From IMG/VR virus record IMGVR_UViG_3300045996_000972: a stretch of 20,000 nucleotides of DNA, one strand, 5' to 3'. A program made the position numbers and the translations under genes. The stretch is from an uncultured virus (IMG/VR IMGVR_UViG_3300045996_000972) (taxonomy: Duplodnaviria > Heunggongvirae > Uroviricota > Caudoviricetes). This document shows positions 1-20,000 of the stretch, piece by piece. Each line of letters opens with the position of its first letter. Positions within the stretch are counted from its first letter, which is position 1. Under the pieces are notes generated by a model. That model had not been told where the DNA came from and made no database searches. It saw only the letters and a list, made by a program, of their open reading frames with translations.

Positions 1-5
1 CTGAA

Positions 6-3607: not shown

Positions 3608-3633
3608 TACATCACATAAAACCCCAAAGAGCA

Positions 3634-3984: not shown

Positions 3985-3997
3985 GGCTCCACCCCCA

Positions 3998-6163: not shown

Positions 6164-6519
6164 TATACCCAACAAAAATTGAAGGAATCGTAGCAGCCAA
6201 TGATAGCTGCCAAGAGATAATTAGTGTGGACCACTGCTTTATTGAGCTTCACCAAGACCATATCAAGTACAAGCACAAATTTCTCGTATCGGAAAAAAAT
6301 CCTCAAACAGAACTATTCGAGGAAAAAAAGTGCATTACGGAGGTGGTTTTCAAACGAGCAATATTAGCTGGATACGAAGAATACAGGAATGTAGAGGGAC
6401 GATGCTGGTCCATAATTGTCATTACCATTGGCGGGAGCCAGTTCACCATTTCTTTCAAGAAGAAAGAGGAGGCTAATGTGCTCAAAGAAAAAATGCACAA
6501 CTACATATTTGAATTGTAA
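6160..6519 (+). CDS. Hypothetical protein
   Basis: 119-aa ORF, ATGA-coupled to the terL stop. Confidence 0.65.
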   Translation: MIYPTKIEGIVAANDSCQEIISVDHCFIELHQDHIKYKHKFLVSEKNPQTELFEEKKCITEVVFKRAILAGYEEYRNVEGRCWSIIVITIGGSQFTISFKKKEEANVLKEKMHNYIFEL

Positions 6520-6560
6520 AAAAATCATATATTGTTGTCCTATTAACTATTAACCAAAAA

Positions 6561-6932
6561 ATGTCCACTATGCGAAAACTTGCAATTCTGCTCGCGTTTT
6601 CCTTGCTGGCGCTTTCTGTCTCTGCTTCGGCAAACAGTTCGCCCCCCGGCTTGGATGAACGAACGACCATTGAGGTCAATTATGAGGTCAATGAAAGCAC
6701 TCCTTCGATCCCGTTCGTACAGGTAAAAGGTTTGGAAGTGAACCAGGTGATTTCTTCCGATGCTCCGGCACCGGCCGATGTTTCTGCTTTGGCAGATGCC
6801 CACCAGGTCATCACTGCGCCAGCCAGACCGGAAGGGAGGTATCGTTGGCGAACGGCCGACAAACTACGATCGATACATGGCCGACTGGATCAACCGATAT
6901 TACACAAACCGGACAAGCCACTAAGAGAATAA
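6561..6932 (+). CDS. Putative secreted protein
   Basis: Sec-type signal peptide MRKLAILLAFSLLALSVSASA; A-rich leader; ends just before the terminator. Alternative start at 6570. Confidence 0.6.
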   Translation: MSTMRKLAILLAFSLLALSVSASANSSPPGLDERTTIEVNYEVNESTPSIPFVQVKGLEVNQVISSDAPAPADVSALADAHQVITAPARPEGRYRWRTADKLRSIHGRLDQPILHKPDKPLRE

Positions 6933-6937
6933 GGTAG

Positions 6938-6965
6938 AAAAGCCTCTCGAATTGAGAGGCTTTTT
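6938..6965. terminator. Bidirectional intrinsic terminator
   Basis: AAAAGCCTCTC-GAATT-GAGAGGCTTTTT: perfect stem flanked by A and T runs, between convergent stops at 6932 and 6973. Confidence 0.9.
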
Positions 6966-7380: not shown

Positions 7381-7409
7381 TGTATCAGTTTTGTTCGCTG
7401 TTGCGAAGA

Positions 7410-7697
7410 TTAATTATTATGTTTCTTTTTTTCACCGCAAAAGGGACAGTAGCTACAATAAACATTTATCGAAGCATCTGTTTGTCGCTTTTCCGGAGAT
7501 CCGTCTTTTTTCAGAGCAACATACTTGAACTCGAACTTCATGAACGGCTCCCACCCGTTCGCTAATCCGGTCAGAGACATTCCCTTGTTCTTGAATTGTT
7601 GTTCCACCACTTCATGAACTTTTACGCCACGTTCTTTTAGGGCAGCCATGATATGCCGTGACGTTTTTTCTTCGATCTTGTTAATGCAATTACACAT
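7410..7697 (-). CDS. Small Cys-rich putative Zn-binding protein
   Basis: MCNC at the N-terminus and CSYCPFCG at the C-terminus; start 7697 is preceded by AACTGATACC-TAAA. Confidence 0.75.
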   Translation of the reverse strand: MCNCINKIEEKTSRHIMAALKERGVKVHEVVEQQFKNKGMSLTGLANGWEPFMKFEFKYVALKKDGSPEKRQTDASINVYCSYCPFCGEKKKHNN

Positions 7698-7723
7698 TTT
7701 AGGTATCAGTTTTGGGTTATGAA

Positions 7724-7966
7724 TTATGGTCGGTATGTTCCGTCTCCGGAGTTGAGAGATTCGCTGATATGTTCTTTGTAGGCCCATCCGTTTAACACTT
7801 CCTGCTTCATTACGGCCACAATCTCCTCCACGCTATTCCAGCAGTCTTGTATTGCACCTGGGTCGTTGTGGCTTTGCATTGGGATTGTTTCTGAACGCAG
7901 GGTTTTAATGATATGCTGAACGTCATTCATCCATTGTTCCTGCAAGGGAGCTTTATAGACCGGCAT
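7724..7966 (-). CDS. Hypothetical protein
   Basis: 80-aa ORF filling the gap; variant motif AACTGAATA before the ATG. Confidence 0.65.
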   Translation of the reverse strand: MPVYKAPLQEQWMNDVQHIIKTLRSETIPMQSHNDPGAIQDCWNSVEEIVAVMKQEVLNGWAYKEHISESLNSGDGTYRP

Positions 7967-7984
7967 TATTCAGTTTTGTTTTGT

Positions 7985-8545
7985 TTAGTAACTTATTTTA
8001 TCGTTCCAGCAAATAATTTGACCATTAAAGCCTTGCTGCTTTGCTTTTGGATGAATAGAAAACCACGAATCAAAATCTTCCGGCACCAGGCCATCATTAG
8101 CCGCAAGTTCCCTTATCTGCCTTTCCGTCCGTAGCACATTGCGATTGATAAATATGAATTTCCTTCTGATCTTAAAATCGAATACTTTCTTTATTTCAAT
8201 CGGTGGCGCAAATTCAAGCTGCTTACTTCTATACGGCACACCGGTCCATACGCGGGGGGAAAACAATTCTCCGGCCCGGAACCGATTACCGGCTCTGATC
8301 GTGTGGTATTTTGGCTCGTATTCGTCAAATGGAGAATAAACCTTGTGTTGCGGGGCAGCCATTTCTATGTATGCTTTTATGTACCCGTTGCGTTCATGAT
8401 TCATTACTGGTTCTTCGCCAGATATAGCCACCTTTAACGATTCATACCACCACAATCCCTTCCATATTTTTTCTACGAAATGGGTGGGCTGCCCGGCCTT
8501 GGGGTGTTTGATTGGAAACTGGCGGCTAAAGGTTATCACTTTCAT
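7985..8545 (-). CDS. Phage protein with putative ASCH/PUA-like fold
   Basis: 186 aa; KYHTIRAG and LAANDGL...FDSWF resemble ASCH-like K.xTIR and A..DG motifs; ATGA overlap with the upstream gene. Confidence 0.55.
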   Translation of the reverse strand: MKVITFSRQFPIKHPKAGQPTHFVEKIWKGLWWYESLKVAISGEEPVMNHERNGYIKAYIEMAAPQHKVYSPFDEYEPKYHTIRAGNRFRAGELFSPRVWTGVPYRSKQLEFAPPIEIKKVFDFKIRRKFIFINRNVLRTERQIRELAANDGLVPEDFDSWFSIHPKAKQQGFNGQIICWNDKISY

Positions 8546-8844
8546 AGCTCAACCTCCAGTTCCGTGTCAAAATCCGATTGGGGCAAAGAGGCTATGTACT
8601 TTCGCTTAAATTCCTGATAGTTGAATGGCAGTGGTCCGAACTTTCTTTCCTTAAAGTTCACACCAGCCAGTTCAATACAGATAGCCAATGCCAGTTGCGC
8701 GGGTCCGCTGCCAGCATATCCCCAATTAAAGCCATCGGGAGAATGGTTGCTAATCCGCAAGCTCTTTGCCGGAGAAAGTTTTTTACCGTTCAGCCAAACC
8801 TGTTTGGATGACCAGTTGCCTTTTAAATTGATAGTCGTATTCAT
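8542..8844 (-). CDS. DUF6166-like protein
   Basis: Signature NHSPDGFNWGYAGSGPAQLALAI. Confidence 0.75.
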   Translation of the reverse strand: MNTTINLKGNWSSKQVWLNGKKLSPAKSLRISNHSPDGFNWGYAGSGPAQLALAICIELAGVNFKERKFGPLPFNYQEFKRKYIASLPQSDFDTELEVEL

Positions 8845-9149
8845 TTGATTTTCTTTTTCATTAGCACTCGCTCACCCTGCCTAGCATACAATTCCAGTCC
8901 TATGCTCCAGGCGAAGTTGTATTCTTTCGGGAAGCGATATGTCCCTGTCGATCGTAGGAACTTTAGTTCTTCCATTACCCACCGTTCCAATCGGTATTCT
9001 CTTTCTCGAACGTAGAAGTAGTGGTGAACTTCAAGCATTGCGTCTATGGGGTGTTCTCCCCCAAAAAGGTGTAGATAACCGTCGTGCATACCTTCCTGCC
9101 AATTAACGGGCAATGGGGGGATAGCGGAAAGGTCTATTTCTATTGGCAT
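8841..9149 (-). CDS. Hypothetical protein
   Basis: ORF starting at MPIEIDL, 2 nt after the upstream stop; ATGA overlap downstream. Confidence 0.6.
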   Translation of the reverse strand: MPIEIDLSAIPPLPVNWQEGMHDGYLHLFGGEHPIDAMLEVHHYFYVREREYRLERWVMEELKFLRSTGTYRFPKEYNFAWSIGLELYARQGERVLMKKKIK

Positions 9150-9151
9150 AA

Positions 9152-9346
9152 TCAATGAAATTTTCTTACCGTAGACGCACACCTGAGACGATCGTAGTCC
9201 TCCTTGGTGAATTTCGGGTAGTTGAATGAAGCAATCTTTTTTCTTCTTTTGCCCAATAAGGTCACACTCGTTGCATCCGATTCATAATCTACAACGTCAT
9301 TCCATTCATTAAAGGATTCAATAGTGTTATTCTTTTGCTTCGGCAT
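9152..9346 (-). CDS. Hypothetical protein
   Basis: 64-aa ORF, TAATG-coupled to the upstream gene. Confidence 0.6.
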   Translation of the reverse strand: MPKQKNNTIESFNEWNDVVDYESDATSVTLLGKRRKKIASFNYPKFTKEDYDRLRCASTVRKFH

Positions 9347-9768
9347 TACCTTACAGTTATAGTGTGGTTTTTGAAATCGATCTCTACGGTATCGATAGAG
9401 AAGCCGCCATCCTTCCTGAAGTGCAATTCGTCTTTGATGATCGTCCAGTCCTCTCCACTGTTGATCGTGACTTCGCCTTGGATCGTTTCGTTGAAGTACT
9501 CTGTCCCGTTGTTTTGCAGGTATTTTAGCCTATCGGCTTGCGACAGATCTTCCGTATCAACGGACCAGCTAAAGGACGCTATAACGTCTGTTATTTCGAT
9601 CCAGATGCTATCCAGGCCATGTTTGCGGGGCTGCGGCGTCAAGGTGAAATTCACCTTCGCTAATTGACTGGAAACGCTACCATCCCAATCGGTGCCAAAA
9701 AAGGCTTCCAGTCCGTCAATAGATACTTCTCTCTTATCGCATACTGCGGTGAAAGTTTCAGGGTTCAT
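9346..9768 (-). CDS. Hypothetical acidic protein
   Basis: 140 aa; AACTGATACC-AA before the ATG. Confidence 0.75.
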   Translation of the reverse strand: MNPETFTAVCDKREVSIDGLEAFFGTDWDGSVSSQLAKVNFTLTPQPRKHGLDSIWIEITDVIASFSWSVDTEDLSQADRLKYLQNNGTEYFNETIQGEVTINSGEDWTIIKDELHFRKDGGFSIDTVEIDFKNHTITVR

Positions 9769-9784
9769 TTGGTATCAGTTTATT

Positions 9785-10006
9785 TTATATACTACTAAGC
9801 TCTTGGTATGCTGTGTTAAGGCATTTGCAGCACTCTTTCATTTTCTTTACTGCCATTTCGGAATCCCGGTGCCAGATACTTGTTGGCGATGCTATTACTC
9901 TTTTCTGCGCTAGTTCTTCCTCCTCTATGACTTGGCGAATGTGGCTCAACAGTTCATTGACCCGGAAAGACAGTTCCGTTATTTCGTATCGTCTAGCCTT
10001 ATTCAT
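9785..10006 (-). CDS. Small helical phage protein
   Basis: MNKARR...IEEEE start pattern typical of small coiled-coil phage proteins; ATG at 10006 overlaps the upstream stop region. Confidence 0.6.
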   Translation of the reverse strand: MNKARRYEITELSFRVNELLSHIRQVIEEEELAQKRVIASPTSIWHRDSEMAVKKMKECCKCLNTAYQELSSI

Positions 10007-10253
10007 TTTCGAGGCTGTCTGTTCGTTCCTGCATATACTCTTGGAGCTGGTGCCGCAAGAATGAAGGACTAAGCAATGGCTTGTCGCTGGTGGTGAATCC
10101 GTGAAGCCCATCAGTAATTTCGTACTGGACCCCCAATATCTTTTCTTTGAACTTGATCTCTTTCACCATCATTCTACCTGCCTGGAAGATGATCCTTGTC
10201 GTCGGCTTATTAAAGTCGAACAAATCTTTTACTAACCTCAATAGCTTAATCAT
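9999..10253 (-). CDS. Hypothetical protein
   Basis: 84-aa ORF packed within the operon. Confidence 0.55.
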   Translation of the reverse strand: MIKLLRLVKDLFDFNKPTTRIIFQAGRMMVKEIKFKEKILGVQYEITDGLHGFTTSDKPLLSPSFLRHQLQEYMQERTDSLENE

Positions 10254-10263
10254 AGCTGGCCTT

Positions 10264-10956
10264 TTAGTGTCCGTAAATTTTTGTTGGTTTTCGGCTCTTT
10301 AGCTGCCAACCTTTGTTAGCAGCCTCCGAATACGGTGGCAGAAGTTTAGAAAACTTCTTTTTCAGCACCAGTCCTTCGTACATATCTATTGTCGCGAGAT
10401 CGTGGTACAGGGTGCGGAAGTTGTTCTCGTAGGAACAAACACGCCAAATATTGTCTAATGGGGTAGTATATAAATATTCCTTGCTGACAATTCCATCAGG
10501 TGTGCTTTTCATCAGTGTATCACCGTATAGATCTCGTAACAGGAATATTCTATCGAGGGTGGTACTGCCGGTGAGAACCTGGCCATTGAAAACAAGAATA
10601 TCAAAGATTATGAAATTTCCATTGAAGTTGGCACCTGATTCGTCCTTTTTGCTTTTCTCCATCCATTCGCCATTGAGAACCATGTAGCCTGTGCCCCGGT
10701 GAAGGGCTGCGAAGTTGATCCGGCTGGCGATATCGCCGGTCTTGTCTTGGTTGTGGCGGTTCATGACCTTGTTGGTAGTGCCATCCATGAATATGAGGGT
10801 ATTTGCTCCGTTCAGCTTTGGTTGAGCAATAAACGTTCCATCATCGTATTTGTCAAGGCTTTCCGGTGGCGTTTTCTGTTCTGGCCGTGGGCTATACAGG
10901 TAGCGGTACTGGTTGTACGGTGTGGCCATTGGTGCTATCAGTTTGGTATCAATCAT
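10264..10956 (-). CDS. Minimal ATP-dependent polynucleotide ligase (nucleotidyltransferase domain only; DNA or RNA substrate unresolved)
   Basis: Motif I AQPKLNGAN, Ia MNRH, III LNGEW, IIIa IIFDIL, IV YEGLVLKK, V WQLKSR; no room for an OB domain. Start is 10956 (ATGA overlap) or 10929 (motif-associated). Confidence 0.8.
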   Translation of the reverse strand: MIDTKLIAPMATPYNQYRYLYSPRPEQKTPPESLDKYDDGTFIAQPKLNGANTLIFMDGTTNKVMNRHNQDKTGDIASRINFAALHRGTGYMVLNGEWMEKSKKDESGANFNGNFIIFDILVFNGQVLTGSTTLDRIFLLRDLYGDTLMKSTPDGIVSKEYLYTTPLDNIWRVCSYENNFRTLYHDLATIDMYEGLVLKKKFSKLLPPYSEAANKGWQLKSRKPTKIYGH

Positions 10957-11123
10957 CTTGCTAAAAATTCAAAGTGTTTTAATTGGTTGAGATCGTTTTT
11001 AAGAACCTTCACTTTATTATGGGCTTTCCATACATTCTTCACCTGCCCGGTCCTGATACGCGCCTCTATTGCGGCAATTTGCGCCTCAATGCTGGCGACG
11101 TTCTGCTTCTTCCGTTGCATCAT
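10953..11123 (-). CDS. Small basic hypothetical protein (56 aa, not in ORF track)
   Basis: MMQRKKQNVASIEAQIAAIEARIRTGQVKNVWKAHNKVKVLKNDLNQLKHFEFLAR fills the gap and ends in an ATGA overlap with the ligase. Confidence 0.55.
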   Translation of the reverse strand: MMQRKKQNVASIEAQIAAIEARIRTGQVKNVWKAHNKVKVLKNDLNQLKHFEFLAR

Positions 11124-11367
11124 CTATTTCTTTTTGGCGTTTAGCAATGTCAATTACTTTGGCACCTGCGACAAATGCCATGTTCTCCCGGTGTTGCTCC
11201 GGGGTAATGATCCCGGCCTCTATCATCACCTTGCCGTATTCGCTGGCCCATTTCCGCCAATGGGATATGTGCCCCCAGGTAACAACCATTTCCATGACGT
11301 ACCTGTTCTGGTATGCGTCCAGATGATGCTGATACATTTGTTTCGCGAAGTCGTCGTAAGGGATCAT
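11086..11367 (-). CDS. Hypothetical protein
   Basis: 93 aa, ATGA-coupled. Confidence 0.6.
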   Translation of the reverse strand: MIPYDDFAKQMYQHHLDAYQNRYVMEMVVTWGHISHWRKWASEYGKVMIEAGIITPEQHRENMAFVAGAKVIDIAKRQKEIDDATEEAERRQH

Positions 11368-11552
11368 GCTGCTAGTGCTTTAATCAGTTGTGCGCTGGTT
11401 TCAGCAATAATTACCGCGATCTCGGTAGCCTGGCCGGCTGGCTGCGGCTGGCCGTCAACCATTCGCCATTTGTTACCTCTGTGGTCAATTCCTTCGTTGC
11501 CGTTCCATTCAACATGGAACCAAAAGCCTGATATATGGAATGAAGTTTTCAT
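11364..11552 (-). CDS. Hypothetical protein
   Basis: 62 aa, ATGA overlaps at both ends. Confidence 0.6.
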   Translation of the reverse strand: MKTSFHISGFWFHVEWNGNEGIDHRGNKWRMVDGQPQPAGQATEIAVIIAETSAQLIKALAA

Positions 11553-11806
11553 AAGTTCGAGTTTATGTATTCTCTGACAATAAGAACTTGTTCTTTTAAG
11601 CCTACAATAACCAGCACATCGTATGTGCCATCTATACCTACCGAAGTTTTCTCATAGTATTTTTTATGCTGCGGATCATAGTGCATTTCCTTCACCTTAA
11701 TAGGCATCTTCTTGTTTCGTGATGCCATCCATTCCAGTAGCAATCGCGGGGCCATACCTTCGGCTGGTATAACTAGGCTATCGTATGCTATGTGTGATTT
11801 TTCCAT
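11549..11806 (-). CDS. Hypothetical protein
   Basis: Start at MEKSHIAY avoids overlap with the upstream gene. Confidence 0.6.
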   Translation of the reverse strand: MEKSHIAYDSLVIPAEGMAPRLLLEWMASRNKKMPIKVKEMHYDPQHKKYYEKTSVGIDGTYDVLVIVGLKEQVLIVREYINSNL

Positions 11807-11809
11807 GAT

Positions 11810-11838
11810 AAAAAAAGTGCCGGAGTATGCCGTCCGGC
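11810..11838 (-). terminator. Putative intrinsic terminator/attenuator inside the minus-strand gene array
   Basis: Minus strand GCCGGA-CGGCATAC-TCCGGC-AC-TTTTTTT, just after the stop at 11850. Confidence 0.6.
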
Positions 11839-11849
11839 TCGGCTGGTTT

Positions 11850-12212
11850 TCAGCTTTCTTGTAATAGTTCCGGTTCTTCGCTGTCGGCGGCATGGTCAAC
11901 ATCGAAGTCCAACAGTCCACCCAGGTAGATCAGGTGTGCCGCTTTCCGGTAGCAAATGATAACGTTGGTCCTGTTGGTCCCCGATATCGGCTTCCGTTCT
12001 TTGATATAAACATCCGGGAATTGCGTCAAGGCATCTTCCAGTTTCTCTATCTCTGCATCATTCAGGATGATGCCATGCGTCTGGTCAACGCTTTGCAATT
12101 CTTTCTGGCAGTTTGCAATCGCCACCTTCAGATTATCCTGCAATGGCTTACTGGTGGGGTTACTAAGCAGGTTTGAGGCTGCGGCTAATAACGCTCTGGC
12201 TGTCCCTCTCAT
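11850..12212 (-). CDS. Hypothetical protein
   Basis: 120-aa ORF with an A-rich leader. Confidence 0.65.
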   Translation of the reverse strand: MRGTARALLAAASNLLSNPTSKPLQDNLKVAIANCQKELQSVDQTHGIILNDAEIEKLEDALTQFPDVYIKERKPISGTNRTNVIICYRKAAHLIYLGGLLDFDVDHAADSEEPELLQES

Positions 12213-12245
12213 GGTTGAGTTTTTTATAGTGGTTAATGGGGTGGC

Positions 12246-12878
12246 TTACTTGTCTTCCTTGTACTTGAGCTGGCACACGGGCTGGATATTGTAGAAAAAT
12301 CCTTCCCTGCTTTCGGCCGGAACCTGCATCAGCCTGTTGATCGCGCCTTTTGCTACGGCGTACTTTATTTCCTGTATTAACAGGTCGGCTTTGTCACCAT
12401 CAGGAATGGAAGGGCAATTCATAATGGCTTCGCTCAACGCTTCCATGTGCTTTTCCAACAGATCCGCGTTAAAGGAAAACGTTGTGTTCTCCGAAACAAT
12501 ATCTTCTCCGTACCAGTTGCGCAGCTCGGCAGCTCTTTCTGCATCCTTGATGCTTATGTAGCGGTCCATGACGATCATCATGAACTTTCCGCCATGCTCG
12601 CCTTTCAGGATGAAGCTGCCTGGGTTTGTCTTTTGTGTTTGGTACAGGGAAAGGAAACGGCTCTGTCCTTCCTGCTTAATGTCGTTCTCCAGTGATTTTG
12701 CCTCCGCTTCATGTTCCTCCATCAGCTTCTTTATTTCTGCCAGTCTTTTCAGCTTGGTAGAAAAGCCTTGGTGTTCGGATTCCTTCACCAGTACTTCCAG
12801 TTTGTCGTCTTTCTTTACTGGTGTTTCTTTCTTTTTGGCAGCCGCGAATAGGTTCGGCTTGGTAGTCGTTGTGTCCAT
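12246..12878 (-). CDS. Hypothetical protein with coiled-coil segment
   Basis: 210 aa; LKRLAEIKKLMEEHEAEAKSLENDIK is coiled-coil-like; first gene downstream of the promoter at 12911-12941. Confidence 0.8.
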   Translation of the reverse strand: MDTTTTKPNLFAAAKKKETPVKKDDKLEVLVKESEHQGFSTKLKRLAEIKKLMEEHEAEAKSLENDIKQEGQSRFLSLYQTQKTNPGSFILKGEHGGKFMMIVMDRYISIKDAERAAELRNWYGEDIVSENTTFSFNADLLEKHMEALSEAIMNCPSIPDGDKADLLIQEIKYAVAKGAINRLMQVPAESREGFFYNIQPVCQLKYKEDK

Positions 12879-12910
12879 TGTGTTATTGTTTTTGTTATCA
12901 GTTTAGAATA

Positions 12911-12941
12911 CTAAGTTATACAAGTTCCAGATAATTACAAA
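12911..12941 (-). promoter_or_regulatory. Bacteroidota sigmaA-type promoter
   Basis: TTTG-19 nt-TAACTTAG (consensus TTTG-N19-21-TAnnTTTG, one mismatch). Confidence 0.75.
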
Positions 12942-13138
12942 TTTATTTTGTTCTTTTTCCTGAACTCTATGTGCAGGAACCGGGGATCGATCAGGGCAAT
13001 CCGGCTCTTGCCTACATAGACCGCGCATATTCTTTTGTCCTCTAATGCGTTATAGACAGTCGTTGTTGATACGCCTTTTATTTTGGCATATTCCGGGACG
13101 GTAAGATGCTTTGCTAACTGGAAGGAATGATTTCGCAT
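12935..13138 (-). CDS. Small HTH DNA-binding protein (excisionase/HTH_17-like)
   Basis: LTVPEYAKIKGVSTTTVYNALEDKRI followed by a wing-like beta segment; 67 aa from MRNHSF. Confidence 0.75.
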   Translation of the reverse strand: MRNHSFQLAKHLTVPEYAKIKGVSTTTVYNALEDKRICAVYVGKSRIALIDPRFLHIEFRKKNKINL

Positions 13139-13145
13139 GGTAATT

Positions 13146-13643
13146 TTATTTTGATACAGCGGCCTTTGTTTCTTCAATGGTTTTGAGCATATCCGCCTCT
13201 GTCTCGATCTCAACCTCCAGTTCATTCACATTCACTTCTTCGCCTGGATCGGCAAATTCATTTTCTTCTGTCAGGAGAATAGCTTTGATCGGGCTGGTAG
13301 CGGTAACGCTTTCTACCCTGTCGTCTTGAACGTGGATCAGGACGGTGGCCACTGGTGCCGGCTCCACCTTCGGTATGTCCTTTTCTTTCGCCAGCTTGTG
13401 GCTCTTTTCGTTGTAGTATTCATATCCCGGTTCGCCCTTGCGGAAAAACTCTATTATTTCGCTACCATGATAAACATGGGTTGGTGCGCGCAATTCGTAG
13501 ATGGTTTCCTGTACTTCTTCCTTTTCATCTGCCCATGACAATTCTTCTCTGGCAATGCGGATGGCATCTTCCGGGCTGTTAGCTTCTACCAGCTTTGTCG
13601 CAACAGTAGTGCAGTAAGAGGCAACTTCAAATACTTTTTTCAT
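13146..13643 (-). CDS. Hypothetical acidic protein
   Basis: 165 aa, Glu-rich; contains VEANSPEDAIRIARE. Confidence 0.7.
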   Translation of the reverse strand: MKKVFEVASYCTTVATKLVEANSPEDAIRIAREELSWADEKEEVQETIYELRAPTHVYHGSEIIEFFRKGEPGYEYYNEKSHKLAKEKDIPKVEPAPVATVLIHVQDDRVESVTATSPIKAILLTEENEFADPGEEVNVNELEVEIETEADMLKTIEETKAAVSK

Positions 13644-13912
13644 AAATGGTTTTTAAGTTTTTGTAATAGATCATTCCAGTACAGTCTATGCTTTTCGGGG
13701 ATAGGATGCGTTATGCCGTCGCTGATCTGGTGAGTATACCCGGCCATTTCCTCCGCCTGTGCTATGGCTCCCGGTAGGTCCGTCACCTCAATACTCTTGC
13801 CGTCTATATCGGTCACTCGCAAGGGACCGGCTGGCCTGGCGGCTGGCGGCGGCGTGGCGAAAAGGCTTTGCTGCGTTCCTCTGAACAGGTCCATTTGTGG
13901 GGCTGGTATCAT
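13640..13912 (-). CDS. Hypothetical protein
   Basis: TDIDGKSIEVTDLPGAIAQA...YWNDLLQKL resembles a small Bacteroidota mobile-element family (recollection, not searched); ATGA overlaps. Confidence 0.65.
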   Translation of the reverse strand: MIPAPQMDLFRGTQQSLFATPPPAARPAGPLRVTDIDGKSIEVTDLPGAIAQAEEMAGYTHQISDGITHPIPEKHRLYWNDLLQKLKNHL

Positions 13913-14121
13913 GGGTTTATAGCTTTTGAGATCAAAAATCGGGCAACGCCAACAGACTCCGGGCACACGTCAACCCATGCGGCGCAATCATCATTCCCGG
14001 AAACGGGCATAGACTTGTATGCGAATCCGGCCGCATCTAAGGCTTTACAAACCGCAGGGTGTAGTTTCCAGTCATACTTTACATAAAGCCGGAACCGTTC
14101 GTTAAGTGCTATTGTTTTCAT
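13909..14121 (-). CDS. Hypothetical protein
   Basis: 70 aa, ATGA overlaps. Confidence 0.6.
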   Translation of the reverse strand: MKTIALNERFRLYVKYDWKLHPAVCKALDAAGFAYKSMPVSGNDDCAAWVDVCPESVGVARFLISKAINP

Positions 14122-14246
14122 TTGACAAGGAGTATTGCGTAGGCCAGTATCAGCAATACAGCGATAAAGGCATACTTGTTTCTTTGGCGAGATCTCGCCT
14201 CTAGTTTTTCGGTCAGGTGCTTTACAACTTCTTCTCCGTAGTTCAT
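14118..14246 (-). CDS. Small membrane protein
   Basis: 42 aa from MNYGEEV with a C-terminal hydrophobic helix YAFIAVLLILAYAILLV. Confidence 0.55.
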   Translation of the reverse strand: MNYGEEVVKHLTEKLEARSRQRNKYAFIAVLLILAYAILLVK

Positions 14247-14251
14247 AAGGG

Positions 14252-14548
14252 TTAATCTAAATGAATGAAAACTCCTGTTTCTAAAAATGTGTTGTGAACG
14301 TTCAGCAGTTCTTTGATGTCGTCGGTAGTTGTCCAAAATGTATACTCGTTAAATGTATCTTCATCTTCAATTCGCAGGGTAAGAAATTCGTCCGTTTCTA
14401 GCGCGCCTAACGCCCACTTGGTATACTTAATAACAGCCTTTCTAATGTATTCTTTATTCCCCTTTTCAATTACGCAGACTTCCGCGCTTCTCATGCCTGT
14501 CTTTCTGAACATTTGCAGGCTATCCTTAATGTGCTTTGAAGTTATCAT
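14252..14548 (-). CDS. Hypothetical protein
   Basis: 98-aa packed ORF. Confidence 0.6.
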   Translation of the reverse strand: MITSKHIKDSLQMFRKTGMRSAEVCVIEKGNKEYIRKAVIKYTKWALGALETDEFLTLRIEDEDTFNEYTFWTTTDDIKELLNVHNTFLETGVFIHLD

Positions 14549-14559
14549 GCCGTGGTGGT

Positions 14560-14784
14560 TTAGAATGTTTGCTTGTCTCGATATACTTGGTTCATTTTAA
14601 TATCCACTATTGAATAACCTCCACCATCCACGATCCCCAACAGGAAATTAAGATCGGCTCCGGTTTGCTTTGCGTGTTTACGCATAGCAGCTTTCAGCAG
14701 CTTTTCAATATCCTTTACCGATGACGACTGCTTTACAGCTAAATGGAATGTGTAGTTGGCGGTTTCAAGTATAACCAGTTTCAT
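14560..14784 (-). CDS. Hypothetical protein
   Basis: 74 aa, TGATG-coupled. Confidence 0.65.
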   Translation of the reverse strand: MKLVILETANYTFHLAVKQSSSVKDIEKLLKAAMRKHAKQTGADLNFLLGIVDGGGYSIVDIKMNQVYRDKQTF

Positions 14785-15056
14785 CAGTCGTTATTTATCG
14801 TTAATAATTTAGTGGCCTGGTCCTGTTGATCCTTCCGGTAACTGTTGCGGATCATTATTTCAAAGTCGTTGTCGAATACTGCCAGATACCAGTCGTACCC
14901 TTCCGCGCTTTTCCATTGGTGGTCAAACTTGCTCACTGGTTGTCGGCTATATCCGATAGCGGTGTTATTTACTTTTGTCAGCAGGTCGCGAACGTCCTTA
15001 AAGCTGGCATAGATGCTAACACTATGCTTTCTCATTTGTGGGGTATTGGTATTCAT
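14784..15056 (-). CDS. Hypothetical protein
   Basis: 90-aa packed ORF. Confidence 0.65.
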   Translation of the reverse strand: MNTNTPQMRKHSVSIYASFKDVRDLLTKVNNTAIGYSRQPVSKFDHQWKSAEGYDWYLAVFDNDFEIMIRNSYRKDQQDQATKLLTINND

Positions 15057-15069
15057 AAGCAGTATATTG

Positions 15070-15119
15070 AGAAGTGGGACGGCTCGAACGTCCCGGCTTC
15101 GCCTTTACGATTCACTTCT
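15070..15119 (-). ncRNA. tRNA-like element lacking an anticodon arm
   Basis: AGAAGTG-AA-TCG(TAAAGG)CGA-AGCCG-GGACG(TTCGAGC)CGTCC-CACTTCT: 7-bp acceptor-like stem, D-like hairpin, 5-bp T stem with a 7-nt TTCGA loop. Confidence 0.55.
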
Positions 15120-15243
15120 GTTGAAAAAAGAAATTCGGGTTGTTTGTCGGGCAATTACTCTTGCTAGGCATCTTCGCGCAGCTCGCGAACAGTAGCGCGA
15201 CAATTCCGATAAGGATGATCCGCAGATCGATAGATTTTTTCAT
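15112..15243 (-). CDS. Small lipoprotein (43 aa, not in ORF track)
   Basis: MKKSIDLRIILIGIVALLFAS-C-AKMPSKSNCPTNNPNFFFQQK: basic N-terminus, hydrophobic core, lipobox Cys22; directly downstream of a promoter and leader. Confidence 0.75.
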   Translation of the reverse strand: MKKSIDLRIILIGIVALLFASCAKMPSKSNCPTNNPNFFFQQK

Positions 15244-15278
15244 GGTGTGTTATTGTTTTTGGTTATCAGTTTGAAATG

Positions 15279-15309
15279 CTAAGTTATACAGATACAAGAT
15301 AATTCCAAA
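15279..15309 (-). promoter_or_regulatory. Bacteroidota sigmaA-type promoter
   Basis: TTTG-19 nt-TAACTTAG; near-copy of 12911-12941. Confidence 0.75.
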
Positions 15310-15311
15310 TT

Positions 15312-15641
15312 TTATTTTCTGCTATGCATACGATTGAATTTGTCAATCATTTGCATCCCATAAGCCGCAACCACGTCCATTTGTTTAGGCGTAGGGACGA
15401 ATTGTAGCAGGTATTCCCGGTAGCTGGTGGTGTAGTCATAAGATAGGCGAATAGCTTCGCTTCCGGGATTGGAACGGTTTACTTTATCCAACTCTAGTAG
15501 CAGATCGATCGCTTTCCGCGATACCTTTTCGCCTTGCTCTGCAAACTCGCGTGTGCTGGTGAACTCCGGGACCCGTCCCGCTTGCGCGGCAGCCTGGGCG
15601 ATCCATTTCGCTATTTCCTTTGCTTTCTTCTCTTGTATCAT
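15312..15641 (-). CDS. Hypothetical protein
   Basis: 109 aa; start abuts the upstream stop. Confidence 0.7.
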   Translation of the reverse strand: MIQEKKAKEIAKWIAQAAAQAGRVPEFTSTREFAEQGEKVSRKAIDLLLELDKVNRSNPGSEAIRLSYDYTTSYREYLLQFVPTPKQMDVVAAYGMQMIDKFNRMHSRK

Positions 15642-15839
15642 TCAACTTGGTTTTTGTGTTAACTGGTTTACGGCATCATCGCACCACTCGCTAATTTGTA
15701 GTGCCAGTTCGTCAAACGATTTGCTGAAAGGGTAATGTTCGGCAAATGTTAGCGGTCCTTCGTACTGGTCCCACTCTTTGCTCAATTCGTTGGCGGCTTG
15801 TTTGAAAGCTGACAGTGCCCTAATAAAGTGACTGTTCAT
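15642..15839 (-). CDS. Hypothetical protein
   Basis: 65 aa containing YPFSKSFDEL; ATGA overlap. Confidence 0.65.
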   Translation of the reverse strand: MNSHFIRALSAFKQAANELSKEWDQYEGPLTFAEHYPFSKSFDELALQISEWCDDAVNQLTQKPS

Positions 15840-16066
15840 GGTTTTGTTTTTGGGTATTGTGAATGTGATTTTCCAGTGTGATGATACAGGCCATTGTTCA
15901 CTCGCGGATGATCCGTTGTGTATTTGGAGTATGCGCAGGCGCTAATTACAGTGCTGAACAGGTGGTTTATATTTAGCGCGTTTCGCATCTGTCGTTCGTT
16001 TATGCGCTGGTGAATGTTCAGCCGGAAATATGGCGCGTACATTTGTTTTAGCATTGTCTTTTTCAT
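15836..16066 (-). CDS. Hypothetical basic protein
   Basis: 76 aa from MKKTMLKQ, ATGA overlaps on both sides. Confidence 0.5.
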   Translation of the reverse strand: MKKTMLKQMYAPYFRLNIHQRINERQMRNALNINHLFSTVISACAYSKYTTDHPRVNNGLYHHTGKSHSQYPKTKP

Positions 16067-16485
16067 GGTAGCTCTTGATATTGGGTGGTTAAGGCTTTTA
16101 TCAGTCTTTCGCCTATGCTCTGAACAAAAGAGAAAGCATTGGCTTTTGTGTAGGTGAGGCTGCCAACCTCTACCTTGCCTTCGCTGAACAGCAATATATC
16201 GTCTGTTATTTGTTGAAGGCTGCATCTTTGCTCCAGTCTATTGGGGATGATAGACAGGCAACCAAGGAAACCCTTCTCCCATGCGTAATAGGCTTTCATG
16301 CAATCCACAAACGCCAGGGTTTCGCCGTAGTCCTTACCATTGGTCCGGGTGCTGTCGTATTTCTCAATATAGACTCCATCATTTCTTCCGGCAGCGTTTA
16401 GCCTGAACTTAACACCGTACAGGTCCAATCGCCTGTTCACGTGTTTTATTTCTTCTCTTATCTTGTCTTTAGAGTGCTGGTTCAT
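16063..16485 (-). CDS. Hypothetical protein
   Basis: 140 aa, ATGA-coupled. Confidence 0.65.
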   Translation of the reverse strand: MNQHSKDKIREEIKHVNRRLDLYGVKFRLNAAGRNDGVYIEKYDSTRTNGKDYGETLAFVDCMKAYYAWEKGFLGCLSIIPNRLEQRCSLQQITDDILLFSEGKVEVGSLTYTKANAFSFVQSIGERLIKALTTQYQELP

Positions 16486-16667
16486 TTTACCAATTTTGAG
16501 ATTATGAAAAGTTCACCCATTAGAACGGCTCCGGCTCCGCAGGCGATAACAAGTCGCTCGTTTGAGGTAGGGTGAAATGGCTGACAAATTACAGCGTATG
16601 CAGCACCAGCAACCAGTAAGAGGCAGGTGAGCAATAGCATCGTAGGAAATACATTTTTGTTGAGCAT
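16482..16667 (-). CDS. Small membrane protein (two hydrophobic segments)
   Basis: 61 aa with two hydrophobic stretches. Confidence 0.6.
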   Translation of the reverse strand: MLNKNVFPTMLLLTCLLLVAGAAYAVICQPFHPTSNERLVIACGAGAVLMGELFIISKLVK

Positions 16668-16670
16668 GGC

Positions 16671-16871
16671 TTATGAATTTATGCAGGTGTAAATATTTGT
16701 ATCATCTTCCCACTTGTCACCCTCCTCCGCTTCCTTCGCCCATTCGCCTAACTCCTCATCATGCCAGCTAAGGGTTGGCGGTTCGGTTTCGGCGGCAGAT
16801 ACAATAGCATCCAGTGTAATGCGCTCCCTAAAGCCTCTACCGGATTTGTCTTTCCATAAGAACATTTTCAT
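16671..16871 (-). CDS. Small acidic hypothetical protein
   Basis: 66 aa containing LGEWAKEAEEGDKWE. Confidence 0.65.
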   Translation of the reverse strand: MKMFLWKDKSGRGFRERITLDAIVSAAETEPPTLSWHDEELGEWAKEAEEGDKWEDDTNIYTCINS

Positions 16872-16900
16872 AAAAAGTATTTTTAGTAGTGAATGGATGA

Positions 16901-17143
16901 TTATTTCCGTAACGGTTCGGTGGAATGGTTCAGTAATTCCATGATCGCGCCATCCGCCGTGGCTGCGTCAATGTGTTTATTCAACCAGTCGGCATCGGTT
17001 ACTATCAATGTATCTTGGTGAACATGGTCGGGTAGTAGTATCTGGCCATTATAGAACCCCTGCGGGGCACTGTTCATTGAACTCCACAATAACAGGATGA
17101 TAAGAACAAAACCCAATACTGAGCAAGACATTAGCTTTTTCAT
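16901..17143 (-). CDS. Small protein with N-terminal signal/TM segment
   Basis: MKKLMSCSVLGFVLIILLLW; upstream GACTGATACC. Confidence 0.65.
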   Translation of the reverse strand: MKKLMSCSVLGFVLIILLLWSSMNSAPQGFYNGQILLPDHVHQDTLIVTDADWLNKHIDAATADGAIMELLNHSTEPLRK

Positions 17144-17181
17144 GTTACAATTTTTGTGTTATGGTATCAGTCGCCAGGCGT

Positions 17182-17919
17182 TTATACACACGCTCCCCGG
17201 CTGGCGATACGCTTACATTCGGCAGCAGCATTGGTCAACAGTTTCTCCCGATCTTGTCCGGCCATGGCGCGCCACTGATCCGGCGTAACATCAGCGAACA
17301 AGTGTTTTGCTTTATCCGCGCCCACCAGCTTGTTAAGGTAATATTGAACCTTCCACAATGCGTTATCCAGATCATCAATATTAACGGCCAGCGCAATGTG
17401 CCCTTCCACCTCAATTTCTCTTATGCGCTGTTCGTCAAAATTGATTTCATGGAAAAGGTTTTCTCCGGTCTTGATGATCTTAACCAGCACCTTCACCGTA
17501 TCATTAGCGGCGTCTGTGAGCAGCTTAACGTCTTTAGCTTGCGTATATGTCAAACTGATTTTAAGCAGCCCTAATAGCCCCGCAGCAACGTCTTGATACA
17601 TTTCAGGTGTCATTTGCAGTTCGGCAGCATTGGCCGCAATGAAAGAGGATAGCTTATTGATGGCGGCGTAGTCATTCCCGCCGACTGTCTTTGTTTCGTA
17701 GTGGCCGTTATCAGTGTTTAGCACCAGATACAAAAAGGGTGAATAGGTGCTTTTCTTTTCGGCGTTCAGTCGTCCGTTCTTCGGGTTGATCGTTTGGAAA
17801 ACGCTTCTAAACCCTTTTCCCTTTACGAACTCAATCGAAAAGTAGGCAGTGGTGCGTAGTCGCCCGTATGGGTAGTTATCTACACTTTGCTTTTCTCTAA
17901 TTGGTAAAATCTTCAACAT
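17182..17919 (-). CDS. Hypothetical protein
   Basis: 245 aa containing VDNYPYGRLRT and QTINPKNGRLNAEKKSTY; ATG at 17919 follows AACTGATACC-A and avoids overlap with the upstream gene. Confidence 0.8.
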   Translation of the reverse strand: MLKILPIREKQSVDNYPYGRLRTTAYFSIEFVKGKGFRSVFQTINPKNGRLNAEKKSTYSPFLYLVLNTDNGHYETKTVGGNDYAAINKLSSFIAANAAELQMTPEMYQDVAAGLLGLLKISLTYTQAKDVKLLTDAANDTVKVLVKIIKTGENLFHEINFDEQRIREIEVEGHIALAVNIDDLDNALWKVQYYLNKLVGADKAKHLFADVTPDQWRAMAGQDREKLLTNAAAECKRIASRGACV

Positions 17920-17929
17920 TGGTATCAGT

Positions 17930-18172
17930 TTATGTGGTTTGAAAATATCCTTCACCTATCGCCCATTCATACAATTCCGCCTCCAGCTTGGCAAGGTCTT
18001 TTGAAACGTCACACCAGTTGCCAATCTCTAAACAATAATCTCCCTCAGCGGTGAATGTTATAAATAATTCGGAAGGGTATATATAGGCGGGTATTCCCTT
18101 GTCTTCTGGATAGCCCGTTGCAACGTCCAGTGTTTTCAACTGCTTGCCAGCTTGGAATTGTGATAGCGTCAT
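17930..18172 (-). CDS. Hypothetical protein
   Basis: 80 aa; the stop codon overlaps the motif at 17921-17930. Confidence 0.7.
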   Translation of the reverse strand: MTLSQFQAGKQLKTLDVATGYPEDKGIPAYIYPSELFITFTAEGDYCLEIGNWCDVSKDLAKLEAELYEWAIGEGYFQTT

Positions 18173-18175
18173 GGG

Positions 18176-18418
18176 TTATAGGTTTATCATTATCCCGAAA
18201 TGGTGAAATGGTACATAGCGATACAGGACATTCAATCGCAGCATCATCCGTATGCTATGCTTGTTCATGTAGCGGAACTCCTGATCGGCTCGGAACAATC
18301 GCATAAACTCCGCTTTCGCTTCGTTTGCTGTGTAGTCATAATACTCTGGTGTGCCTTGCTTTTTCTTTATACTGGCAACCAGTCGTTTTATATCTCTGTT
18401 TAATTCTTGCGTGGTCAT
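18176..18418 (-). CDS. Hypothetical protein
   Basis: 80 aa; AACTGATACA-ATG. Confidence 0.7.
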   Translation of the reverse strand: MTTQELNRDIKRLVASIKKKQGTPEYYDYTANEAKAEFMRLFRADQEFRYMNKHSIRMMLRLNVLYRYVPFHHFGIMINL

Positions 18419-18443
18419 TGTATCAGTTTATAATGTGATTGAA

Positions 18444-18764
18444 TTAGCGCATACTACTGAGCTGAATTTTGGCGGCCTGTTCATCCGTCAATCCAAATAT
18501 CAACCGGTTCAGTTCTTCAAGTATATCCTGCGACTCGTCATAGGTCACGGTTTCATTGAAACAAACCCATGTAGGGAAATATCCCGATTCATCCATTTCA
18601 GCTATGCCTATCATGTGGCCGTTCTTGTTGTAGTTACTTACGAACGCAACCCGCTTGCCTTTGAACCTTTGGTCCATAACAATGCGCCATAACAAGGAAT
18701 GGAACAGACCGTTTACTTTGTCTTTGAATTGGTCGTATGCCTTGTTCATATTATCTATGTTCAT
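18444..18764 (-). CDS. Hypothetical protein
   Basis: 106 aa containing IGIAEMDESGYFP and LNRLIFGLTDEQAAKIQLSSM. Confidence 0.7.
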   Translation of the reverse strand: MNIDNMNKAYDQFKDKVNGLFHSLLWRIVMDQRFKGKRVAFVSNYNKNGHMIGIAEMDESGYFPTWVCFNETVTYDESQDILEELNRLIFGLTDEQAAKIQLSSMR

Positions 18765-18798
18765 AGTGATGATTTTAGTGTGTTATTGAATTGACTGG

Positions 18799-19020
18799 TT
18801 AAATATTGTTGCGCTTGCGGTGTTCAGAATACGCCCAATTACTAGCGAACGCATCCATATCCTGACCGCGAAAAACATCATAGGCGCTCTTATATCCATT
18901 GGTGTTACGCTTCTCAACTTCGGCCTCTAATACAGCGTAGGCGGCATCTGATAGTTTAATTTTAAGTTCTTCCAGTTGACGGGCTTGTACTTCTAAAGCA
19001 TCTTTAATTGTGAATGACAT
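18799..19020 (-). CDS. Hypothetical protein
   Basis: 73 aa; AACTGATACC-ATG. Confidence 0.7.
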   Translation of the reverse strand: MSFTIKDALEVQARQLEELKIKLSDAAYAVLEAEVEKRNTNGYKSAYDVFRGQDMDAFASNWAYSEHRKRNNI

Positions 19021-19067
19021 GGTATCAGTTTTACAAATTAATTAATACAGTGTGCAGTCTATTTGCA

Positions 19068-19574
19068 TCATAGCAAACCTTCATCCGCGAAGGAATAATA
19101 ACCAGCATCGGAGATTATAACATGGTCCAATACTTGAATATCAAAGTATCGCGCAGCCTCTTTTATTTTCCATGTTAAATCTTGATCGGCTTGACTTGGT
19201 TTAAGGCTTCCGGATGGGTGATTGTGTGATAAAACGATGGCAGTAGCAGCGCAGTCTAATGCAGCCTTGATAATTATTCGCGGGTCGGCCACTGTGCCAG
19301 TAATGCCACCCTTACTTACAGAAAAGAAACCAACGACTTTGTTTGAACGGTTGAGGCAAAAGAGTAGAAATTCCTCTTGATAGCCTACCGTGTTTTCGTC
19401 ATAGCACTCCTTGATGATGTTCGCGAAATCGGCTGAATAAGTGACTTGAAACATTTCAGTGGATGGCACTTTGTGGGAATACTTCATTTGCCACTCAATT
19501 TTGGGAATCCTTGCGCTATTGATAGGCGATAATGCAAGGCTTAACTGTTGAATTTCTTGCTGTCTTTTGTTCAT
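19068..19574 (-). CDS. radC: RadC-family JAB/MPN domain protein
   Basis: QEEFLLFCLNRSNKVVG, SKGGITGTVADPRII, SHNHPSGSLKPSQAD, VLDHVII and YYSFADEGLL; no N-terminal HhH. Confidence 0.93.
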   Translation of the reverse strand: MNKRQQEIQQLSLALSPINSARIPKIEWQMKYSHKVPSTEMFQVTYSADFANIIKECYDENTVGYQEEFLLFCLNRSNKVVGFFSVSKGGITGTVADPRIIIKAALDCAATAIVLSHNHPSGSLKPSQADQDLTWKIKEAARYFDIQVLDHVIISDAGYYSFADEGLL

Positions 19575-19660
19575 GGTATCAGTTTTTTAAAACAACAACG
19601 GTCGGTGTTTAGCGGCTCAGCCTGTTGGCGTTTGGCGATCTTTCCGCCGTTGTTGCACAA

Positions 19661-19685
19661 CAAAGTTATACATATACAACATAAT
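19661..19685 (-). promoter_or_regulatory. Bacteroidota-type promoter for the first minus-arm gene
   Basis: Perfect -7 box TAACTTTG preceded by ATTATGTTGTATATGTA, similar to the spacers of the other two promoters; no clear TTTG -33 box. Confidence 0.7.
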
Positions 19686-19706
19686 ATTCCTACGGTTTTA
19701 GGGACG

Positions 19707-19754
19707 AACGGTAATAACCAGTGATAAACGGTAAAATAGAATGGATGAACGGTA
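19707..19754 (+). repeat. Three phased AACGGTA direct repeats
   Basis: Copies start at 19707, 19727 and 19748. Confidence 0.6.
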
Positions 19755-20000
19755 TAAATGAAAGGATAAAAGGAGTGATATATGTGCAATATGTAGGGAT
19801 GCTAATAATAGCAATAGCAATATTGCGCAATGCAAAAACCACATATACCAAGGCAAACCCATATCATGCGCGCACCATGACCACCGCAATACATTGTACC
19901 CACCAGACAGGGGAAGGGAAACAGCGTGACGGGTACGGGGCTGGCGGCCCGGCTGGCGGCCGGGGCGGACCGGCCGGGGCGTGGCACCGGCTGGCGGGGG

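Follow-up and report, generated by a model that had tools for sequence, protein, structure and literature searches.

An uncultured member of the Caudoviricetes (IMG/VR record IMGVR_UViG_3300045996_000972) carries a near-invariant 12-nucleotide (nt) element, here called the tag. Of the roughly 37 early genes of this phage, 11 have the tag at or close ahead of the start codon. We studied it in a 20,000-nt stretch of this virus, referred to as the window. The tag is real, strand-specific, start-associated and restricted to the early gene arm. It is a statistically solid, phage-specific start-codon tag, described from one genome fragment, in a system that does without Shine–Dalgarno (SD) sequences. 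As to its function, we tentatively favour, at rather less than even confidence, a transcribed, phage-specific RNA leader element that resembles the start-associated sequences (SAS) of mycobacteriophages and would be read by one sequence-specific, trans-acting phage factor.

The window, a section of a phage genome, comprises two convergent arms. Packaging and late genes occupy the plus-strand arm (1–6932), which holds a large open reading frame (ORF) of more than 1,000 amino acids (aa), the large terminase TerL and small genes. The early arm runs on the minus strand from 19690 down to 6973 and consists of about 37 small genes, the final one being gene 7380–6973.

Copies, consensus and position of the tag

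The plus strand has no exact copy of the 8-mer AACTGATA, whereas the minus strand has ten (expected 0.57, s.d. 0.76; 0 of 200 shuffles reached ten). Searching for the 11-mer AAACTGATACC with up to two mismatches gave 13 matches, again on the minus strand only (5.42 expected; one of 200 shuffles reached 13). Eleven of these are the tag sites, including a variant, CGACTGATACC, and two (8532–8542 and 17707–17717) lie inside coding sequence. The sites span 7381–19585 (minus strand), and no copy is present in the packaging and late arm (1–6932). A first-pass annotation of this DNA had reported ten minus-strand copies and one variant, none on the plus strand or before late genes, and a chance expectation below one per strand; these claims are confirmed, the ten being AACTGATA and the variant CGACTGATACC at 17163–17173, and the site coordinates and ATG distances it gave are all correct.

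Aligning the sites reveals a conserved block AA-ACTGATA-CC-A (12 nt, also written AAACTGATAC(C)A). ACTGATA is present in 11/11 sites, the two preceding A residues in 10/11 each, the two following C residues in 8/11 and 9/11, and the next A in 9/11. Conservation does not extend into the flanks, and the tags are followed by unrelated coding starts. Sharp 12-nt borders between dissimilar surroundings point to selection on a recognition site, not to recent duplication.

Each tag-associated ATG opens an ORF. Four tags abut it: site 1 (AAACTGATACC, 19575–19585), at the RadC-like gene (19574–19068; RadC PF04002, E = 1.2e-37); site 2 (AAACTGATACC, 19021–19031), at a gene for 73 aa (19020–18799); site 3 (AAACTGATACA, 18419–18429), at gene 18418–18176; and site 11 (AAACTGATACA, 7381–7391), at the last gene of the arm. 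Four others are 1, 2, 4 and 4 nt away. Site 4 (AAACTGATACC, 17921–17931) is 1 nt from the ATG of gene 17919–17182 and overlaps the TAA stop of the upstream gene, and site 9 (AAACTGATACC, 9771–9781) is 2 nt from that of gene 9768–9346. At 4 nt are site 8 (AAACTGATAGC, 10934–10944), before ATG 10929 of a ligase-like gene (the first ATG of this frame is 10956), and site 10 (AAACTGATACC, 7702–7712), before ATG 7697, the product of which matches phrog_7033 from phrog_7033 residue 1. The three far sites are site 7 (AAACTGATAAC, 12894–12904; 15 nt, gene 12878–12246), site 6 (AAACTGATAAC, 15262–15272; 18 nt, a 43-aa lipoprotein-like ORF at 15243–15112) and site 5, the variant (17163–17173; 19 nt, gene 17143–16901), which sits directly behind a hairpin. 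All 11 tags, like the genes behind them, are on the minus strand.

All tagged genes are preceded by a gap of 10–68 nt. Within these gaps the tags sit nearer the ATG end than uniform placement predicts (Fisher combined p = 0.0097 over ten sites; the site at 17921 is omitted, its 10-nt gap being shorter than the tag), so that nearness to the ATG is more than a consequence of short gaps. No secondary structure shared among the tags was found. The folding of the 60 nt upstream of them is not better than that of shuffles (z from −1.39 to +1.30), and there is no consistent hairpin. Five further early starts have decayed look-alikes of the tag; possible degenerate copies are AAAACTGAATA (7967–7977, minus strand; 7977–7964 with its abutting ATG 7966) and AAAAAACTCAACC (12213–12225, minus strand; 12225–12210 with its abutting ATG 12212).

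A probable host that does not rely on Shine–Dalgarno pairing

Protein relationships and start-site composition indicate that the host probably belongs to Bacteroidota and, within it, to Chitinophagaceae. Terminases of Flavobacterium and Cellulophaga podophages are distant relatives of TerL (~28% identity), and in a sample of 401 genomes from the family around Ferruginibacter, one has a contig to which TerL is 38% identical. The RadC-like protein shares 60–70% identity with genes of Ferruginibacter, Chitinophagaceae and Chitinophagales genome bins (26 loci). SD-like words precede 1/37 early starts, G is depleted at −15 to −9, and A is enriched (−12 in 29/37, −11 in 28/37); A-enrichment without SD at gene starts is the signature reported for Flavobacterium johnsoniae (PMC6847099). 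Three promoters of the type used in this phylum, P0, P1 and P2, stand in the early arm and have the common sequence GTATAACTT(T/A)G.

The tag is not a ribosome-binding sequence of a familiar kind. It has no G-rich, GGAGG-like core, in keeping with the scarcity of SD-like words at early starts, and the earlier statement that it is neither an SD nor a −7 box (T-8, T-6 and G-5 are absent) is borne out. Pairing with host ribosomal RNA is not supported: measured on six Chitinophagaceae 16S genes, pairing energies fall within the distribution for shuffled tags. The best ungapped match (10/11, with several G–U pairs) lies near position 1072, in a conserved internal helix. With the whole 16S rRNA the duplex reaches −8.7 kcal/mol, against a shuffled-tag mean of −8.98 (55% of shuffles are as good), and with the 3′ 40 nt it reaches −5.9 kcal/mol (28% as good).

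A general start signal of the host can also be rejected. The 9-mer AACTGATAC is dispersed at 10–20 per Mb in five genomes of the candidate host family, against ~350 per Mb in the window. Two of the five have it at 13–16 per Mb; the other three, candidate-host genome bins, together contain 120 copies, and an ATG stands 0–4 nt behind 9 of these, where ~9.4 are expected. Linkage to starts in candidate hosts is therefore at chance level. A literature search for the letters of the tag returned only unrelated matches such as primers.

Likeness to mycobacteriophage start-associated sequences

The closest phenomenon is the SAS of Cluster K mycobacteriophages, GGGATAGGAGCCC, which contains the SD core AGGAG and is able to pair with 16S rRNA (Pope et al. 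2011, PMC3203893); according to a 2025 survey its function awaits experiments (PMC12699233). Among the literature matches listed, the term 'start-associated sequence' is applied to mycobacteriophages, save in one genome note on a Citrobacter myophage. Both elements are short asymmetric repeats in a single orientation, confined to the non-structural arm, and both precede the starts, mostly ATG, of unrelated genes (PMC3203893). The SAS is described as rare in its host (PMC3203893); in the candidate-host-family genomes the 9-mer of the tag occurs at 10–20 per Mb. The SAS lies a few nucleotides (3–7 nt) from the start, and the tag 0–4 nt from it at 8/11 sites and 15–19 nt at 3/11. The tag differs in other respects. 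It has no SD core and no rRNA complementarity, its sequence is unrelated (not GGGATAGGAGCCC with up to two deviations), no ESAS-like inverted repeats are found near it, and its host is of the SD-less Bacteroidota type. The tag is thus closest to the Cluster K SAS as a phenomenon, yet is not a member of the SAS family.

Host-type promoters and predicted transcription through the tag

P0 has a perfect Bacteroidota −7 box, TAACTTTG (19661–19668, minus strand; consensus from PMC6847099), matching 6/6 positions. P1 (15279–15309, −7 box 15286–15279) and P2 (12911–12941, −7 box 12918–12911), both on the minus strand, are canonical host-type promoters of the form TTTG-N19-TAACTTAG, with 5/6 box positions matched in each and TTTG 19 nt upstream. 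P1 and P2 are ~75-nt copies of each other, leader and tag included, and are accordingly counted as one event. At both (sites 6 and 7) the start of the ACTGATA core lies 8 nt behind the −7 box. Transcription in F. johnsoniae starts 4–5 nt behind the −7 box (PMC6847099), so the tag should form the extreme 5′ end of the P1 and P2 primary transcripts, with a full A-rich leader (…AATAACACA…) between it and the ATG. The tag of site 1 and its ATG at 19574 lie ~81 nt downstream of P0. Between P0 and this tag is a leader hairpin, CAACAACGG...CCGTTGTTG followed by TTTT (19589–19655, minus strand; −23.6 kcal/mol, z = −1.6), possibly an attenuator; the tag comes just behind it.

With host-type promoters upstream, the tags of sites 1, 6 and 7 are predicted to lie within transcripts and should be transcribed. 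For the other eight sites, no convincing host-type promoter was found within 40 nt; if the host polymerase makes these eight RNAs, which assumes transcription through the sites, their tags would be internal to long transcripts. The first-pass statement that the tag lies downstream of promoters and is therefore transcribed thus holds for sites 1, 6 and 7 (P0–P2), and at the remaining eight no canonical upstream promoter backs it. No terminator stands behind a weak plus-strand −7-like box at 19005 that faces site 2, and this box is probably a chance occurrence.

Several smaller features accompany these promoters. The leader word AATAACACA recurs in the A/C-rich leaders of three genes (18779–18787, 15246–15254 and 12879–12887, minus strand), two of them behind far tag sites, and a near copy, ATAACACAA, follows tag site 5 (17144–17162, minus strand). 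The first ORF behind P1 (15112–15243, minus strand) encodes the 43-aa peptide with a lipoprotein-like signal (MKKSIDLRIILIGIVALLFASC...). Just upstream of P0, three iterated ACCGTT(C/T)(A/G)T units are spaced ~20 nt apart (19704–19753, minus strand) and may be operator or origin iterons. A small protein encoded just upstream of P2 (12935–13225, minus strand) has a weak match of the HTH_17/excisionase type (Pfam E = 0.0018, NCBIfam 0.00074), below the curated cut-offs.

The tag as a possible promoter core

The first-pass annotation overlooked that the tag could itself be a promoter core that yields leaderless mRNAs, the main rival explanation, which we regard as possible although not probable. 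The tag would then be a phage-specific −10-type element without a −35 or −33 partner, used by host RNA polymerase with a phage-encoded or phage-modified specificity factor that starts ~7 nt behind the ACT. Eight genes would have leaderless mRNAs or leaders of 1–4 nt, three would have leaders of ~15–20 nt, and at P1 and P2 the host-type early promoter would be joined in tandem by the tag as a second (middle) one. Counting the A of an abutting ATG as +1 places A-11 in 10/11 sites and T-7 in 11/11, the two universal −10 determinants, and makes +1 an A in 9/11. A free distance to the ATG also suits the three far sites.

The remaining promoter positions do not follow. T-12 occurs in 4/11 sites and in 1/4 of the abutting ones, where A-11 and T-7 fit a TAnnnT box and no −35 accompanies it. 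As a Bacteroidota −33/−7 promoter the tag fails on T-8, T-6 and G-5, A-11 and T-7 being all it has; upstream of the tags there is no conserved element, and no TTTG, TTGACA or other −35/−33 element occurs at any fixed distance. A sigma-70 promoter is not supported either, a scan of that type finding 18 sites against 23.4 in shuffles. Further points against a promoter are that leaders exceed 10 nt in 87% of predicted F. johnsoniae transcripts (PMC6847099), that the window yielded no recognisable gene for a sigma factor or RNA polymerase, and that the tag would overlap the core of a host-type promoter at P1 and P2. A terminator-like hairpin followed by a run of seven Ts (11809–11838, minus strand) within the early arm implies either readthrough or separate promoters for the genes downstream, which would suit promoter tags; the four genes just behind it, though, are untagged.

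A parallel comes from an unrelated phage. Scanning IMG/VR for AAACTGATACCATG gave, among the matches listed, one multi-copy contig, G001 (59 kb, 37% G+C), whose major capsid protein is T4-like and 32–33% identical to cyanomyophage ones. In complete IMG/VR scans with 15-mers, several copies occurred only in two contigs of the G001 family: one scan found 70 stretches, in single-copy contigs and at chance level, and the other found 52, of which 44 were single and at chance level and eight lay in three G001-family contigs. The G001 element, TTAAAAACTAG-nn-TAnnnT-nnnnnn-ATG, is 26–28 nt long and stands in 82 copies before nearly every small early gene (1–24800, plus strand), the 11-mer of the tag being one variant of it. 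The modal spacing is shared by 47 copies, of which 44 have T-12, all 47 have A-11 and 46 have T-7; bases in between vary, and the ATG follows at a fixed distance. By these features it is a predicted sigma-70-type leaderless promoter array, with its putative transcription start on the ATG. Other G001 genes carry TTGACA-N16-17-TAnnnT-N6-ATG and TAAATAATA-ATG, the latter preceding late genes, and the gene architecture looks near-universally leaderless. Four further contigs share the element.

An unrelated T4-like phage uses the same 11-mer, TAAACTGATACC-ATG, in what appears to be a leaderless sigma-70-type array, which favours a promoter. The TTGACA −35 boxes imply, however, a G001 host with sigma-70-type promoters, which lies outside Bacteroidota, and no protein is common to G001 and the phage of the window at E ≤ 1e-3. 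Given the many variants in G001, and that it was found by searching for this very string, the shared 11-mer is an analogy, quite possibly a coincidence, and not a sign of common descent.

A further comparison is with the PeSL of T4-type phages, in which a sigma-70-like promoter is coupled to a terminator stem-loop (Arbiol et al. 2010, PMC2839356). Repeated elements on one strand before many small early genes are common to PeSL, G001 (with its identical TAAACTGATACC-ATG) and the window. The tag differs from both in being 12 nt long, with no T-12 conservation, upstream box or consistent hairpin; having neither a recognisable sigma-70-like promoter nor a stem-loop, it is probably not a PeSL.

When IMG/VR was scanned for a promoter followed by the tag, the 11 stretches obtained were close to chance expectation, and six belonged to one family. 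These six related small viral contigs (35–37% G+C) have GTATAACTTTG-AAAA-AACTGATA in one copy each, a perfect −7 box with the tag core at the predicted transcription start; this may be chance.

Other possible readings: processing site, operator or recombination scar

Three other explanations were weighed. If a sequence-specific phage or host endoribonuclease cut the polycistronic early RNA at the tag or next to it, each gene unit would obtain a defined 5′ end like that of the P1 and P2 primary transcripts. This explanation agrees with a tag at the predicted 5′ end of those two transcripts and inside long transcription units elsewhere, and with a single-stranded element at a free distance from the ATG. 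We nevertheless consider it improbable: no nuclease candidate was recognised in the window, and no sequence feature speaks specifically for cleavage. Intergenic RNase III processing sites in T7 are hairpins, and hairpins, the mark of known phage intergenic processing sites, are absent here.

The 13-bp stoperators of phage L5 and further phages from Cluster A are asymmetric and intergenic, are not tied to start codons and occur in both genome arms. The tag might likewise be an orientation-dependent repressor site on DNA, occupied by a DNA-binding protein, which would shut P1 and P2 (where it covers about +1 to +12) and block elongation at internal sites. Like the stoperators of mycobacteriophage L5, which are mentioned in PMC3203893, it is asymmetric, about 12–13 bp long, intergenic and in a single orientation to transcription, with some copies at promoters, twice lying operator-like over a transcription start. 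The weak HTH_17/excisionase-like protein encoded just upstream of P2 would be in keeping with such a site. The tie to the ATG, beyond the effect of gap length (p = 0.0097), is unexpected for a stoperator, the late arm in view has no copy, and neither a repressor nor an integrase is visible in the window. We rate this as quite improbable.

That the tag is a mere microhomology scar or anchor of cassette exchange, with no function in expression, seems to us very improbable. It does flank units of small accessory genes, and the PeSL cassettes of T4-type phages contain repeated regulatory elements that mediate shuffling (PMC2839356). At 11–12 nt, however, it is very short for homologous exchange, there are no jumps in base composition at the tags, and exact conservation with sharp borders and dissimilar flanks argues for direct selection. 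All the mechanisms considered are compatible with an additional part in gene exchange, with the tag serving as microhomology.

A proposed RNA leader element read by a phage factor

The explanation that we favour, though tentatively, places the tag on RNA. It would mark the translation-initiation regions of 11 of the ~37 early genes in a host without SD pairing and, on the mRNA, would serve as the shared, unstructured binding site of one trans-acting phage factor. Either an RNA-binding protein or a small antisense RNA would fill this role, acting like T4 RegA or an antisense regulator, and would switch the translation or stability of the tagged genes jointly. We think, purely by inference, that the tag acts on RNA and that such a factor exists.

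Position is the first argument: 8/11 tags are within 0–4 nt of the ATG, four of them abutting it, which exceeds the effect of gap length. The tag bears no signature readable by the main sigma factor of the host, and its transcription is predicted from P0, P1 and P2. When a tag abuts the ATG its A residues, at −11 to −9 and −3, fit the Bacteroidota initiation context. The lack of a consensus RNA structure is as expected of a linear binding site.

T4 RegA offers a protein model. In many early mRNAs its sites, unstructured and A/U-rich, are located at the AUG or next to it; they are degenerate and include the AUG itself. The tag is likewise an unstructured, A/U-rich site at or beside the ATG of many early genes, to which one phage protein would bind. 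Unlike RegA sites it is near-invariant and stands up to 15–19 nt from the ATG.

Several observations weigh against an RNA leader element. A stretch complementary to the tag AAACTGATACCA occurs in the 20 kb, with G–U pairs allowed, only as the tag's own opposite strand, and neither the P0 leader hairpin nor the terminators contain it. The GUAUCAGUU-bearing small RNA proposed in the first-pass annotation was thus not found in the window, nor was any antisense feature of the type of c4 in phages P1 and P7 (a phage RNA complementary to the tag), and no known RNA family matches. Among the 42 proteins of the window, which is the part of the genome in view, PHROGs, Pfam and NCBIfam revealed no RNA-binding protein or other candidate factor, and PHROGs and Pfam no RegA homologue. 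The three far sites, each followed by its own full A-rich leader, are poorly placed for a translational operator. Transcription through the tag is assumed at eight sites, and the terminator-like hairpin at 11838–11809 interrupts the early arm. Covariation lends no support, since no relative with a comparable early region was found.

More generally, and with considerable doubt, we suggest that phages of SD-less Bacteroidota may give subsets of their early mRNAs a private, single-stranded 12-nt 'address' by the AUG. Read by a phage RNA or protein, it would provide gene-specific control of initiation in place of the SD handle.

How start codons are selected without SD pairing in Bacteroidota is unsettled, and a near-invariant 12-nt element at 11 starts is a compact, mutable handle on this problem. 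Reporter systems exist for Flavobacterium and Chitinophaga in which the tag could be assayed in any of three roles, those of translation signal, operator and promoter. As a start-associated element it would extend the SAS phenomenon from actinobacteriophages, where it has an SD core, to an SD-less host phylum. If it is a promoter, it would represent a promoter class that the main sigma factor of the host does not read, and leaderless expression in a Bacteroidota phage.

Further features of the window

TerL was assigned by its match to phrog_6681 (E = 5.8e-62), and PHROG matches were obtained for 5/42 window proteins, none of them a regulator. Few early-arm products belong to known families: the RadC-like JAB protein, the ligase-like protein, DUF6166, phrog_8581 and phrog_7033. 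No tRNA genes or Rfam families were detected in the window. The large ORF (3–3011, plus strand, open at the window edge) has no solved relative; it gives only weak leads, to the LPD38/LPD39 large polyvalent protein domains (0.87–0.88, below 0.9) and to an HhH-like C terminus.

Two soil-metagenome runs contain the stretch, and the contig pieces listed are identical to the window, showing no joints or variants in the early arm; no RNA run is among those listed as containing the stretch. INPHARED phages include no close relatives, and TerL identity in IMG/VR is at most 28%. The best metagenome matches reach 59–62% identity but lie on contigs of 2.3 kb that contain no early genes; a contig of 90 kb, at 33%, lacks the tag. 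Genome contigs searched for relatives of the phage gave nothing. Relatives of the phrog_8581 gene (eight loci) show neither tag enrichment nor synteny.

Between the convergent late and early arms, a 13-bp hairpin with T runs (6937–6965, no strand assigned) marks the end of the early arm. At the other extreme, the window end (19900–20000) is a very G+C-rich tract of GCCGG/CCGCC repeats, which many unrelated metagenome contigs touch with loose ends. A second strand-biased word is the octamer GCCAGCCG (mostly GCCAGCCGG), with ten copies on the minus strand only (0.51 expected), at 1038, 6053, 10721, 11435, 11445, 13828, 13840, 17198, 19950 and 19988. Two of these lie inside plus-strand late genes, so the bias tracks the DNA strand and not the direction of transcription. 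The octamer could be a Chi-like or packaging-oriented signal, or in part an effect of Pro-Ala-Gly codons.

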